From positions 1,823 through 65,822 of the forward strand of contig LCFP01000006.1 in the NCBI GenBank assembly GCA_000999095.1: a DNA stretch of 64,000 nucleotides. Reading direction: 5' to 3'. A model generated the notes under the pieces. It was not told where the DNA came from and did not search any database. It saw nothing but the letters and a program-made list of their open reading frames with translations. Position numbers and translations under genes: made by a program. Positions 45,349-63,725 of the stretch are shown here, piece by piece (the first letter of the stretch is position 1; every line of letters starts with the position of its first letter). Origin of the DNA: Candidatus Gottesmanbacteria bacterium GW2011_GWA2_43_14 (lineage in GTDB: Bacteria > Patescibacteriota > Microgenomatia > 2-02-FULL-39-11).

Positions 45349-48279
45349 TTACTTATTGTAATTATTCAGCCAGATGACATAGTCGAGACCGTCCACTTTT
45401 CCCGAGTTATTAAAGTCACCATTTACTGCTCCCGTTGCAGATTGGTTGTAATGGTTAAGCCAGGCTACGTAATCAAGACCGTCAACCTTGTCGTCCCCAT
45501 TGGCATCACCGGGTTTGCCTATTGGCGGTGTTGTCGGTGAGGGACCGGTTGTAACAGGCGGAGAAGTAGGACAGTTGGTGCCGGTGCAGGAGACCTGAAT
45601 AGTGGAGATAAGATTGTCCAGATAATATAAGTCTCCCAGCATCATCGGGGCATCCAACCGTTTGGCCAGTTCATTGTAGCTTTCCTTAAGTATCAGGGCT
45701 TTGGCCTGGAACAGGGAATGGGTTTGCTGGTAAGGTGTCGCCGCACCTTCACCCTGGACTTCCCGGTTCAAAGCCTCAAACCATAACGGTATTTCAGCAG
45801 TGTATGTATTGACAGCGTCCTGAACCTTGGTTTTGGCATTAACATTCAGATAGTCTGCCAAAGCAGGAGTCAGGTACATGAAGTTCCAGGCATGTTTGAG
45901 GGTGGCATAGTAATTTGCCGCGTTATTGGTACCTGTAGTGCCCAGTGTTTGTACCGGACTGATTTGAAAATTGTTTTTTCTCTCGGTGAGTAAAGAGTTC
46001 AAGGTTGTTTCGTAAGGTCCGTATACGGATGACGGCTGGCCGGCCAGTTTGGCCAATTCCACATATCCCTTGTAGCCGGCGATCAATCCGTTAACTGCTT
46101 GCGGCCACATACCGGGACAGGCAGGGGAACAATATGACGGACGAGCGGCGGAAAGTTTGGATTTGGCGGAATTAAAGACGGTTAAAGCCTGAGAAGGATT
46201 CTCTTTGGCATATTGCCACATGGCGTAGAATTGATATGGAGGCCAGTTCCACATATTTTCCCAGAGTTTCGAAGTTGAAGGTCCCATATTGGCAATTTTC
46301 CCGGCCATACCAGGAGGGTAGGAAAAACTGTCCCTGAATTTACCGTCCTTCCAGCCAATGTGGCTGTACTGGTAAGGCGGGAATTGGGTAAATTCGTTTT
46401 GGAGGTATGTTTTTACCTGTGTTTTTAATCCGGCAGATAAATACGGGAGCGCTCTGAGCAGATAATAATGAATGTCTCCCGGGGCATGCCAGTAGTCCAG
46501 TAGCATATCACCCAGGGACGACTGCATATGCTGATCAAAGTTTCCGCCTACACCGTATCCCGGTTTCAGGTGCCCGGCATTGACGATTTTCTGCACTTCC
46601 GTTTCCAGGATATTAACAAGCTGGGCAACAGGCGGCACTCCCGCAGGTTCACCTATGGTTGCCGGGGCGGGGGCGTCTGAGATTGAGGCCGATTTGCCTG
46701 TTCCATTTGGTGAAAAAGCGATCAAGGCGTTGCTTCTTATAGCATACATTTTGCCGTCGTAAATTGCCGGACCGGCGTTGTCCCCATGGGAGGCATAAAA
46801 ACGGCCAACTGTCGTCGGGTCGCTCCAGAAAAATTTTTGCATCTGGCTGAAATAGTTATCGGGCAGGTCGCCGCTGTTTTCACCTATTTTGCCGGTTAAA
46901 TGTCTCCACTGACGGGTTGTATCCAGTGAAGGATAAGCAGTATTTGATTTGGATATATCAGCACTGCCTATAAACCTATCGCAACAAAGATTCCAATAAA
47001 TGTATTTGCCTCCACCCGATAGGCCTGTATACTCATCCAAAGGCCAGGCCAGGCTCTGGCCGAAATGTTTGGATACAGCGAGGCTGAGGAAACTACTGCC
47101 GTATTCCCAGCCTGTAGCGCGGGAGCCGGTAAAGCTGTTGTTTTGAAACAGCGGGGTGCGGAAATACAAGATATTCTGGTTATTGTAGCCGCTGAGAACA
47201 GGCGGATAAGCGGTTTCCCAATCCTGAACTGATCTTAAAACAGGGACGGCATCGGTTTTACCGTCCTTGTCAGTATCAAAATTAACTTCCACCCCATTGG
47301 CCTGGTTCAGGACGAAAACATTTCTTTGGTGCGGATTGCTTTCAAAGTAGTTGGGAATTGTTGTAGACATAAGGGGATTTATGGAAACATCAACGGTTTT
47401 TGTCTGGGAACCGACGGTGTGAGTGACAATTTGACCGGCCGGATTATCAGAGGTAGTTCCCCCTATTATCAAATCCCTTTCGTATCCAAAATCATTGCCT
47501 CCGGTAAAATCTCCTGAAGTATTTCTCTGTTCCTCGGTGCGGGTGAAAATAACCTTGTCGCTGTAAATCACCGGCCACCAGGTGATAAAGCCCATGCCCG
47601 GAAGTTTGACTTTCCAGGACAGGGTTCCGCCTGTGGTTAAAGCGTAAGCATTGCCGTCCTGGGCACCAAAAAAGATTTTACCGCCGGAGTAGGCGGCTGA
47701 AAACAGGATCGGTCCGGGACCATCAGTTTTATATTTCCATTTTTTACTGCCGGTTGAGGCATCCAAAGCATACATGTATCCGTCACGGTTACCGGCAAAG
47801 ACAGTGTTTTCGGCAAAGAGGGGACTGGTTGAAAAACCGGCGCCTCCTTCGGTTGATACATCAAATACCCATTTTTTACTCCCGTTGGAAACATTGATGG
47901 CATGCACTTTGCGGTCCAGTCCGGAAGCATATAAAGTGCCGGCATTGTAAGTAGGAGAGTGTCCGATCGGCATCTCGGTTGCGTAAATCCATTCCTGGGT
48001 GCCGGTATCGGCATTGAAAGCGTATACTCCGCGGGCAGTCGAAACAAAGACCTTGTTTTCCGCTCCCACAGGCTGCACCCTTTGTGAAACATATGGCACC
48101 AGTCTTTTCACCCAAAGGGCTTTTAAAAGTCCCGGTGCTTCATTCGGCGTCCAGGAAGTCCGCTGTGCATTTCCTCCGGCTGTTGACCAGGGAATATCAG
48201 TTTGGGCAATAGCGGGAGACAGGGAAGTCGTCAGAAGAAGGCAGACGGTTAAAGATATTAGTAAAATTTTCACAGCCAT
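45349..48279 (-). CDS. secreted PQQ-like beta-propeller repeat protein with a C-terminal dockerin-like module
   Basis: Repeats of (V/A)YA(F/L)(N/D)xxTGxxKW at the N-terminus, a large additional domain, and C-terminal GDANGDDKVDGLDYVAWLNHYN...GDFNNSGKVDGLDYVIWLNNYNK. Confidence 0.55.
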   Translation of the reverse strand: MAVKILLISLTVCLLLTTSLSPAIAQTDIPWSTAGGNAQRTSWTPNEAPGLLKALWVKRLVPYVSQRVQPVGAENKVFVSTARGVYAFNADTGTQEWIYATEMPIGHSPTYNAGTLYASGLDRKVHAINVSNGSKKWVFDVSTEGGAGFSTSPLFAENTVFAGNRDGYMYALDASTGSKKWKYKTDGPGPILFSAAYSGGKIFFGAQDGNAYALTTGGTLSWKVKLPGMGFITWWPVIYSDKVIFTRTEEQRNTSGDFTGGNDFGYERDLIIGGTTSDNPAGQIVTHTVGSQTKTVDVSINPLMSTTIPNYFESNPHQRNVFVLNQANGVEVNFDTDKDGKTDAVPVLRSVQDWETAYPPVLSGYNNQNILYFRTPLFQNNSFTGSRATGWEYGSSFLSLAVSKHFGQSLAWPLDEYTGLSGGGKYIYWNLCCDRFIGSADISKSNTAYPSLDTTRQWRHLTGKIGENSGDLPDNYFSQMQKFFWSDPTTVGRFYASHGDNAGPAIYDGKMYAIRSNALIAFSPNGTGKSASISDAPAPATIGEPAGVPPVAQLVNILETEVQKIVNAGHLKPGYGVGGNFDQHMQSSLGDMLLDYWHAPGDIHYYLLRALPYLSAGLKTQVKTYLQNEFTQFPPYQYSHIGWKDGKFRDSFSYPPGMAGKIANMGPSTSKLWENMWNWPPYQFYAMWQYAKENPSQALTVFNSAKSKLSAARPSYCSPACPGMWPQAVNGLIAGYKGYVELAKLAGQPSSVYGPYETTLNSLLTERKNNFQISPVQTLGTTGTNNAANYYATLKHAWNFMYLTPALADYLNVNAKTKVQDAVNTYTAEIPLWFEALNREVQGEGAATPYQQTHSLFQAKALILKESYNELAKRLDAPMMLGDLYYLDNLISTIQVSCTGTNCPTSPPVTTGPSPTTPPIGKPGDANGDDKVDGLDYVAWLNHYNQSATGAVNGDFNNSGKVDGLDYVIWLNNYNK

Positions 48280-48282
48280 ATA

Positions 48283-62384: not shown

Positions 62385-62411
62385 ACTTTGGATATGGTCT
62401 CCGGTTTATAA

Positions 62412-63725
62412 CTACTTGTTGTAATTGTTCAGCCAGATCACATAGTCGAGCCCGTCGACTATGCCGTTTTTATTAAAATCCCCGCTACTTACTCCTGATG
62501 CCACTGTTTTGTTATAGTTTATCAGCCAGATGACGTAATCCAGCCCGTCGGCTTTACCATCGCCGTTGGCATCACCAGGTTTAGCCCCAAGTGTCGGAGT
62601 CGGGGAGAGGGTAACGGTGGGATCGGGCGGATTTGTAGGTCCGATTCCGGCTTTGATGCCTACGGCATAAAAAGTATATTTTACCGCTTCCGCGGGGGAA
62701 TTCGTCAGTTTTTGTCCGGTTTCGGAGGATGCATGATGGCCGACCAGAGACACATTGCCAAAGACGTCAATGACCGTTTGCCTCATATTCTGATACATTA
62801 CGGCAGGATTAATTCCGGTATAGCCTGTTTGTTCCTGGGGATGGCCGGGAACATAAAAAAGTATATCGGCATTGCCGTTAAGTTCAGTTTTGATTTGATT
62901 CAACAGATTCTTGGTGACTAAAACCGGATCGCCGCCGAACCCTTCGCCCACACCTCGAGAAGCAATATTAAAATCACCGGAAAGAAGGATAGCGTTAACC
63001 GTGCCGCCTTTGGCAATGCCATTGACAATTGAGGCGGCATAACCGTCAGCCGAGCCCATACCGATAACCTTGATATAGGAGGGCAGGGGATCTCCCCAAG
63101 CCTGTTTAACACCCGCCAGGATAGCCACATTGTTGTCCCAGTGGCCGGGGCCAGTCAGAAGCAGCAGGTTTTTCTTGTTTGGATTGGGAGTTAGTTTTAA
63201 AGCCATGGCTTTGGTGCCGGCTGTGATTTTCGCATCATCGCCGCCGTAACCGTACTGGGCTCCGTCATCAGCCTGAGTGATAGAGGTTATGGCACTACCA
63301 CCAATGGCTGTCAGCGACAGATGTTTGGATAGGGGCGGAGGGAAGAAATCAATGGACAAAGGCTGGTATTTGGCAGAGCCTGTGGCTGCCCCGAAGATTT
63401 GGGTATTTGCGCCGAAAACGCTTTTGACAGCTTCAACGGTTTTGGCCGGATAACCGGCATTGGTTAGCATGATAACTGCCCTGACAGGCTCCGAACCCAT
63501 TTTAGTTTTGAGGCTTTGGGCAATTACCAGAGAAGCGTTATAAACATCGCTTTCAGAGGGCGTGACAGTCGAATCACCGAAATAATTGCCGGCTGAAGCT
63601 GATTTGATATACGGCAGGCTTTGAGCCAAAACAGGACGCATGAAAAAAGGAGAAATCAAAAAGACGGCTAATAACAACTTCAGCCTCATGATTTCATCAT
63701 AGTAGGAATTACAAATAAAAGACAA
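62412..63725 (-). CDS. secreted hypothetical protein with a C-terminal dockerin-like module
   Basis: Signal peptide and an unrecognised ~380-aa body. Dockerin GDANGDGKADGLDYVIWLINY...GDFNKNGIVDGLDYVIWLNNYNK. Confidence 0.45.
   Translation of the reverse strand: MSFICNSYYDEIMRLKLLLAVFLISPFFMRPVLAQSLPYIKSASAGNYFGDSTVTPSESDVYNASLVIAQSLKTKMGSEPVRAVIMLTNAGYPAKTVEAVKSVFGANTQIFGAATGSAKYQPLSIDFFPPPLSKHLSLTAIGGSAITSITQADDGAQYGYGGDDAKITAGTKAMALKLTPNPNKKNLLLLTGPGHWDNNVAILAGVKQAWGDPLPSYIKVIGMGSADGYAASIVNGIAKGGTVNAILLSGDFNIASRGVGEGFGGDPVLVTKNLLNQIKTELNGNADILFYVPGHPQEQTGYTGINPAVMYQNMRQTVIDVFGNVSLVGHHASSETGQKLTNSPAEAVKYTFYAVGIKAGIGPTNPPDPTVTLSPTPTLGAKPGDANGDGKADGLDYVIWLINYNKTVASGVSSGDFNKNGIVDGLDYVIWLNNYNK

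Follow-up and report, generated by a model that had tools for sequence, protein, structure and literature searches.

The window analysed here is a 64,000-nt stretch of DNA from Candidatus Gottesmanbacteria, an ultra-small groundwater bacterium of the Microgenomates within the Candidate Phyla Radiation (CPR), and our subject is the array of densely packed minus-strand genes between 45349 and 63725, eleven of which end in a segment coding for a dockerin. Our main finding is that the DNA resemblance among these segments results mainly from strong purifying selection on the encoded protein, a module of about 54 residues: the modules are old and are held by selection at the protein level, and the data do not support recent homogenisation of the whole set. 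We join to this a proposal about function, namely that the cluster would serve a cohesin–dockerin system for the surface display of secreted enzymes, in which selection and not gene conversion keeps the dockerins alike, and to this joint reading we give a probability of roughly 0.65.

Selection and exchange in dockerin-coding DNA

A first-pass annotation of the sequence had called these gene ends nearly identical DNA attached to unrelated upstream regions. The modules themselves are a good deal less uniform than that description implies: in a codon alignment of all eleven, pairwise nucleotide identity runs from 65 to 86%, with a mean of 74%, no more than 73 of the 162 columns lack variation, and identity at the protein level is 79%. 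The 27-mer that the annotation had singled out, at coordinates that proved correct to within about 6 nt, shows 0–8 mismatches (mean 3.8) over 26 half-sites; a 27-nt motif coding for DGLDYVIWL occurs at 16 sites with no more than three mismatches, against none expected from shuffled sequence. For a pair of window modules the longest stretch of uninterrupted identity has a median of 17 nt and reaches 46 nt at most. Similarity ends at the module borders, the 40 nt downstream being 28% identical and the 60-nt linkers 38% identical, and the upstream regions are indeed mostly unrelated, except in three paralogue pairs (48283/52186, 53375/60081 and 56080/58808) with 28–35% amino-acid identity.

Synonymous sites are essentially saturated. 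By the method of Nei and Gojobori (NG86), the proportion of synonymous sites that differ (pS) averages 0.76 in the eleven modules and is never less than 0.515, so that the synonymous distance (dS) is at least 0.87, and the median ratio of nonsynonymous to synonymous distance (dN/dS) among window dockerins is about 0.07. At identical residues the same codon is used in a fraction of 0.50, compared with 0.424 ± 0.014 expected from the genes’ own codon usage; against two other Gottesmanbacteria genomes, L006 and L007, the corresponding values are 0.49 and 0.43, the latter equal to the null. The three paralogue pairs offer an internal comparison, and here pS is 0.66, 0.64 and 0.75 in the dockerins versus 0.76, 0.69 and 0.73 in the catalytic parts, within about one standard error of each other. 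Lower synonymous divergence in the dockerin than in the catalytic part, which recent exchange of modules had led the first-pass annotation to predict, is therefore not clear from pS, and essentially the outcome is the one that it had itself named as speaking against its proposal. There are, in addition, two module subtypes, NNYNK-TVT and NHYNQ-SAT, both of which are also found in L006, so that they coexist and predate the split from that genome. Near-randomised synonymous sites, together with a similarity that stops at the module borders, mean that selection at the protein level explains most of the resemblance.

The competing explanation, that concerted evolution through recent gene conversion or the shuffling of modules has kept dockerin DNA alike across the whole cluster, seems to us quite unlikely, although it has real observations on its side. 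The nearest relative of every dockerin lies in the same genome, codons are shared beyond the null, and in the paralogue pairs the same-codon fraction, a cruder measure than pS, is 0.595 for dockerins versus 0.428 for catalytic parts (Fisher p = 0.0016). Exact tracts exist as well. Inside the window the module of gene 57413 (genes are named here by their low coordinate) is a mosaic of its neighbours: its 5′ 46 nt (57576..57531) match 58974..58929 of the upstream neighbour, gene 58808, exactly, and the remainder is closest to the downstream neighbour, gene 56080. Past the window end, a PQQ-propeller gene (x0001) and an unrelated Big_9 gene (x2956) have dockerins that are 95% identical, with a 134-nt exact tract and a same-codon fraction of 0.90, while x0001 and its PQQ paralogue x4564 are 75.6% identical overall yet share a 284-nt exact tract, with a dS of 0.21 in the dockerin versus 1.29 in the catalytic part. 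For gene 45349 and x4564 the corresponding values are 0.74 and 2.8. Short-tract exchange between dockerins thus does occur, but it is patchy: a single sub-family, located for the most part past the window end, shows it conspicuously. Conversion across the whole set has to contend with synonymous sites that are, on average, saturated among the window modules, with dockerins about as diverged as their catalytic parts, with a codon sharing inside the genome no higher than that with L006, and with two ancient subtypes side by side; the tract shared by genes 57413 and 58808 is significant in a pairwise permutation test (p < 0.0005), but the global p is only 0.06–0.16. Nothing relevant to gene conversion or concerted evolution of dockerins was present among the top literature matches.

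Could parts of the cluster, or the similarity itself, be an artefact of collapsed or chimeric repeats? We regard this as extremely improbable. Assemblies from JGI, ENA (MEGAHIT, ERZ978281) and Logan agree with the window at 100% identity and in the same order over 20.8, 11.6 and 8.0 kb, respectively, these overlaps span many dockerins, and Logan derives from a different sequencing run; the window has no runs of N, all genes are open-framed, and the dockerins are intact and individually distinct. It is nevertheless true that the contigs of all three assemblies break off within repeats of dockerins or paralogues: the one from Logan ends in dockerin regions at window positions 45529 and 53501, and those from JGI and ERZ978281 end within the 284-nt repeat. 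Assembler bubble-popping could exaggerate exact tracts. The warning in the first-pass annotation that this is a hot spot for assembly errors is hence borne out as far as broken contigs go, whereas no collapse or chimera was seen, since all overlapping sequence is 100% identical.

Dockerin symmetry and candidate cohesin partners

A six-frame motif scan of the window finds 26 dockerin-type calcium loops, which make up 13 complete two-repeat modules, all of them between 42 and 64 kb. On the minus strand eleven genes have such a module at their C-terminal end, and the other two modules lie inside plus-strand genes. The first-pass annotation had counted twelve minus-strand genes with such ends; its twelfth, 49473..50285, has a single divergent EF-hand (DLNQDGKVDLIDF) and is one of the cohesin candidates described below. 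Against the Pfam Dockerin_1 family (PF00404, gathering threshold 22.9 bits), 11 of the 13 modules pass with scores of 24.0–34.7 bits, and genes 60081 and 62412 fall just under it with intact motifs. Calcium-ligand positions 1, 3, 5, 9 and 12 are intact throughout, the ligand strings being DNDDD or DDDDD in repeat 1 and DDNDD, DNSDD, DNNDD or DNDDD in repeat 2. An AlphaFold2 (AF2) model of the gene 53375 module (predicted local distance difference test score, pLDDT, 74.5) has two predicted helices, at 19–32 and 50–60.

Two statements of the first-pass annotation about recognition residues were right, including the residue numbering. Positions 10–11 are G-L in both repeats, with VDGLDY occurring twice in every one of the eleven minus-strand modules, and this pair aligns with the S-T recognition pair of the Clostridium thermocellum Xyn10B dockerin (1OHZ/2CCL). 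The modules are also internally symmetric, since the two halves share 11–15 of 15 residues at positions 8–22, and all 15 in gene 53375; the two internal plus-strand dockerins are asymmetric by the same count, with 9–10 of 15. A dual-binding dockerin is expected to keep its contact residues (positions 10, 11, 17, 18, 21 and 22) alike in both repeats, and the eleven C-terminal modules, with G-L twice and the shared residues just counted, agree with this. The same-codon fraction between the halves of one gene is about 0.40, equal to the null. The halves are alike in residues but their codons are no more alike than chance, which argues that selection, and not recent duplication, keeps both faces alike, and this internal symmetry without nucleotide homogenisation plausibly fits a dual-binding (two-orientation) mode, as far as sequence can tell. 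Two further observations concern the same residues. In L006 and L007 position 11 varies (G-P, G-Q, G-I and G-T) and the halves may differ. Across 28 dockerins of three genomes (the window, L006 and L007), Ala at loop position 2 is written GCC in 27 and Asp9 is written GAC in 26, both well beyond codon usage.

Two genes of the cluster encode candidate partners, which we call cohesins A and B (49473..50285 and 44806..45345). Cohesin A has no Pfam match and no match among PDB sequences, and no significant cohesin match came up either when its isolated domain was scanned against Pfam or when a profile was searched against the sequences of the PDB. Its AF2 model, built with 16 homologues, reaches a pLDDT of about 95 over residues 57–195, and a Foldseek search of the PDB with that model returned cohesins for all of the top 50 matches (best E = 1.6e-10; template-modelling score, TM, 0.64–0.79 for the best ten), so that the prediction is of a nine-stranded beta-sandwich with the cohesin fold. 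Cohesin B is 32% identical to cohesin A (BLASTP, E = 8e-15), shares its N-terminal hydrophobic anchor and carries the UniRef name ‘Cohesin domain-containing protein’, although it scores 15.6 bits (E = 0.018) against Pfam Cohesin (PF00963), below the cut-off of 24.1 bits; of 13 close homologues, a single one matches that family even below threshold. With no significant sequence match, the cohesin call for the window proteins rests on predicted fold and on a transitive profile link. That link comes from a domain profile search of 1.84 billion proteins, which gave 742 cluster representatives at 50% identity; of 94 retrieved proteins that were scanned, 12 match Pfam Cohesin (best 1.4e-82) and 26 carry Dockerin_1, and relatives carry 2, 3 or about 9 cohesins.

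A few features of this family deserve mention in their own right. After its cohesin-fold domain, cohesin A continues with a Pro/Thr linker and a Cys-containing C-terminal segment with one EF-hand ‘half-dockerin’ (loop 49503..49541, minus strand). This ending is common to cohesin A and most of its homologues: it is a conserved Cys-x7-CYNQW...ADLNxDGxVDLxDFExWRR segment with one EF-hand and two predicted helices, resembling half a dockerin of a different sequence type. One protein (P0038, 2276 aa, from a JGI metagenome) looks like a scaffoldin: it strings together about nine cohesins of this kind in tandem, has fn3/Big_7 domains as well, and ends in a symmetric dockerin. A profile scan found no further cohesins in the window or the adjoining 10 kb, and a third cohesin protein, UV73_C0018G0040, is encoded on another contig of the same genome.

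How might all this work? We propose that type I dockerins on Sec-secreted enzymes would bind the cluster’s membrane-anchored cohesins A and B, as well as the third cohesin elsewhere, and that calcium-dependent cohesin–dockerin binding would keep the enzymes attached to the surface of the cell, making this a non-cellulosomal display system. The N-termini of all eleven minus-strand dockerin proteins resemble signal peptides. All dockerins would then have to fit the same few cohesin partners, hence a common interface and, we infer, its conservation, and both dockerin halves would be kept alike by selection, as a two-orientation dockerin predicts. The cargo consists of sulfatase, beta-lactamase-family, DUF4185, PQQ-propeller, Big_9 and unknown proteins, with only one protein resembling glycoside hydrolase families 5 and 39 (GH5/39). 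Related loci have the same arrangement of cohesin and dockerin genes. In two of the other Gottesmanbacteria genomes (L006 and L007) and on a metagenome contig (L009), the genes on either side of a cohesin gene encode proteins with a VDG-x-DY dockerin at their end or start, and in another Gottesmanbacteria genome (L008) one contig has four cohesin proteins and one VDG-x-DY dockerin, which with the window makes five loci.

Several points weigh against the display reading and should be stated together. The pairing of cohesin with dockerin is argued from fold, homology and gene neighbourhood only; both window cohesins fail the Pfam Cohesin threshold; there are only two or three cohesin modules for at least 20 dockerins; and in a fold search with the isolated dockerin model dockerins ranked first, but the best E of 0.41 is not significant. 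As to selection, the modest but significant excess of shared codons, in the set as a whole and in the paralogue pairs, argues that some old or short-tract homogenisation contributes. The same scarcity of cohesins, and their invisibility to Pfam, feed a different idea, namely that these dockerin-like modules act without cohesins, as calcium-dependent anchors to cell wall, S-layer, pili or host glycans, and that the cohesin-fold proteins are unrelated to them. Dockerin-like modules without recognisable cohesins are widespread outside cellulosome producers, and a dockerin-domain protein of a Saccharibacterium has been proposed to target host glycans (PMC10633639). We consider this idea improbable, although it has a better claim than whole-cluster conversion. 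In all five loci genes for this very type of dockerin surround the cohesin-fold genes or share a contig with them, the family includes the protein with about nine tandem cohesins and proteins that combine cohesin and dockerin, as in true scaffoldins, and the predicted structure matches specifically the cohesins that bind dockerins.

Cohesin–dockerin display thus remains our preferred reading, and it can be extended, if only tentatively, to the possibility that this cluster forms the centre of a kind of display system characteristic of Microgenomates, with a cohesin family that is cryptic in sequence, two-faced dockerins that address cohesins A and B, and a swappable rack of enzymes. The cohesin family may be large, as its 742 representatives would suggest, and mostly missed by standard annotation. 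The subtypes, with NNYNK at both helices or with NHYNQ in helix 1 and NNYNK in helix 3, may present two slightly different faces, and dual-binding symmetry may be used to address two different cohesins, beyond mere flexibility. The cargo enzymes of L006 and L007 have no BLASTP match at E ≤ 1e-3 among those of the window, and cargo that differs wholly between related genomes would, if the extension is true, indicate enzymes that can be exchanged on the rack for scavenging from, or attacking, the envelopes of hosts or neighbours.

Although CPR bacteria make do with tiny genomes and rely on other cells, more than 30 kb are given over here to at least 20 secreted enzymes with one attachment module and to the putative receptors. 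If the pairing is true, it would show how such cells retain scarce exo-enzymes on their own surface, and it would furnish protein engineers with a compact and highly symmetric dockerin–cohesin pair. For those who scan genomes, the lesson is that short conserved protein modules can mimic DNA repeats, that a test at synonymous sites separates selection from conversion, and that such modules do fragment short-read assemblies.

Layout of the array and its surroundings

Coordinates of the dockerin modules and cohesin genes are collected in the table. For gene 62412, the 425-aa product that starts at ATG is present in other assemblies, and a look-up with the product from a mechanical TTG start gave no match.

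Table. Dockerin modules and candidate cohesin genes of the cluster, in window coordinates
Feature	Position	Strand	Evidence and remarks
Internal asymmetric dockerin (G-R / G-L) of membrane-anchored CBM96 protein 42267..43622	43023..43184	+	Pfam CBM96 6e-23, Dockerin_1 28.5 bits
Internal asymmetric dockerin (G-L / G-I) of membrane-anchored CARDB protein 43678..44781	44389..44550	+	Dockerin_1 34.7 bits, CARDB
Cohesin B (putative)	44806..45345	-	179 aa, membrane-anchored, single cohesin, paralogue of cohesin A
Dockerin of gene 45349..48279 (PQQ-like beta-propeller, 976 aa)	45352..45510	-	Pfam Dockerin_1 25.9 bits, motif scan, subtype NHYNQSAT
Dockerin of gene 48283..49455 (390 aa, catalytic part without Pfam match, paralogue of 52186)	48286..48441	-	Pfam 24.2 bits, motif scan
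Cohesin A (putative)	49473..50285	-	N-terminal hydrophobic anchor, predicted cohesin-fold domain aa 57-195 (nt 49701..50117)
Dockerin of gene 50324..52132 (sulfatase + PKD, 602 aa)	50327..50488	-	Pfam Sulfatase 8e-61, Dockerin_1 24.0 bits, motif scan
Dockerin of gene 52186..53370 (394 aa)	52189..52350	-	Pfam 28.2 bits, motif scan
Dockerin of gene 53375..54697 (440 aa, paralogue of DUF4185 protein 60081)	53378..53539	-	Pfam 28.8 bits
Dockerin of gene 54746..56056 (Big_9/cadherin-like, 436 aa)	54749..54907	-	Pfam 25.7 bits, motif scan
Dockerin of gene 56080..57423 (447 aa, distant beta-lactamase-family paralogue)	56083..56241	-	Pfam 31.4 bits
Dockerin of gene 57413..58678 (GH5/GH39-like TIM barrel, 421 aa)	57416..57574	-	Mosaic module
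Dockerin of gene 58808..60076 (beta-lactamase family, 422 aa)	58811..58972	-	Pfam Beta-lactamase 6e-23, Dockerin_1 26.2 bits
Dockerin of gene 60081..61334 (DUF4185, 417-aa open reading frame)	60084..60245	-	DUF4185 7.6e-11; Dockerin_1 21.5 bits (below cut-off); motif intact
Dockerin of gene 62412..63725 (annotated start 63689; catalytic part without Pfam match)	62415..62576	-	Dockerin_1 19.0 bits (below cut-off); motif intact

The array has a sole gene on the opposite strand, 61326..62384 (+), an open reading frame (ORF) of 352 aa, for which other gene calls give 323 aa; the sequence of its product is repetitive and resembles a beta-propeller, with no dockerin and no significant Pfam match. 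The two plus-strand proteins with internal dockerins have Cys/Pro-rich tails after them. Past the window end the source contig carries seven further dockerin genes (L003, 1..9954). One is a 77-aa ORF that codes for a dockerin and nothing else, its second repeat being degenerate (D1 to N, G10 to R); in the product of another the dockerin is N-terminal, directly after the signal peptide. Elsewhere in the window, an arginyl-tRNA synthetase (ArgRS) gene at 2919..5618 (+) has an N-terminal B3_4 domain (PF03483, normally part of the beta subunit of phenylalanyl-tRNA synthetase, PheRS) before the usual ArgRS domains, an unusual fusion, and at 28912..29131 the genes for tRNA-Pro(CGG) and tRNA-Arg(CCT) are divergent, with 72 nt between them.

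Comparison with known systems

The closest relatives in design are the type I dockerins of clostridia, for which the structures of C. thermocellum Xyn10B (1OHZ/2CCL) and of C. cellulolyticum (2VN5/2VN6) served as references. Both they and the window modules have two tandem 22-residue F-hand loops with helices and belong to PF00404, in both the recognition pair at positions 10–11 is duplicated in the two halves, and the strong internal two-fold symmetry is, in clostridia, the basis of the dual-binding mode. Pages and colleagues reportedly described in 1997 an A-L/A-I pair in C. cellulolyticum, which the hydrophobic position 11 recalls here. The differences are just as clear: the helix DYVIWLNNYNK (Trp16, Asn-rich) and the G-L pair depart from the clostridial types, the Pfam scores are low at 19–35 bits, and the cargo is mostly not cellulases. 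The modules belong to a CPR bacterium, and not all of them are C-terminal, with internal positions for some and an N-terminal one outside the window.

Cohesins of anchoring scaffoldins, such as C. thermocellum OlpA and OlpC (3UL4/4DH2) and C. acetobutylicum CohA2 (6KGF), resemble those of the window in that the predicted nine-strand beta-sandwich superposes on them with TM scores of 0.66–0.79, and, like OlpA and OlpC, the window proteins have a single cohesin, would be cell-bound and are encoded beside dockerin-bearing enzymes. They differ in having an N-terminal transmembrane anchor, and not SLH domains or a sortase, in being invisible to Pfam Cohesin and to PDB sequence searches, and, for cohesin A, in ending with a ‘half-dockerin’. 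By analogy, we infer that the system works like a minimal anchoring cohesin–dockerin pair of clostridia. It does not look like a cellulosome: the window cohesin proteins have one cohesin each and no carbohydrate-binding module (CBM), unlike a cellulosomal scaffoldin, and the cargo is not dominated by cellulases or hemicellulases. Set against concerted evolution by gene conversion, the likeness lies in the 46-, 134- and 284-nt exact tracts in otherwise diverged genes and in one mosaic module, and the difference is that homogenisation here is local and rare, most modules being saturated at synonymous sites.

Within the Microgenomates themselves, cohesin and dockerin domains have been reported in Ca. 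Shapirobacterales (Bell et al. 2022, PMC9123182), and that paper cites Geesink et al. 2020 for cohesin and dockerin in a Ca. Roizmanbacterium. Those reports share with ours the superphylum, the groundwater habitat and the co-occurrence of cohesin and dockerin, which was read there as a cellulosome-like system, whereas the cargo found here argues against a cellulose-degrading cellulosome. They are also domain annotations from genome surveys, while in the present case at least 20 genes are mapped as an array, together with their candidate cohesins, the module subtypes and an evolutionary analysis. That cohesins and dockerins occur in Microgenomates is therefore already known, and what is new here is a well-mapped case.

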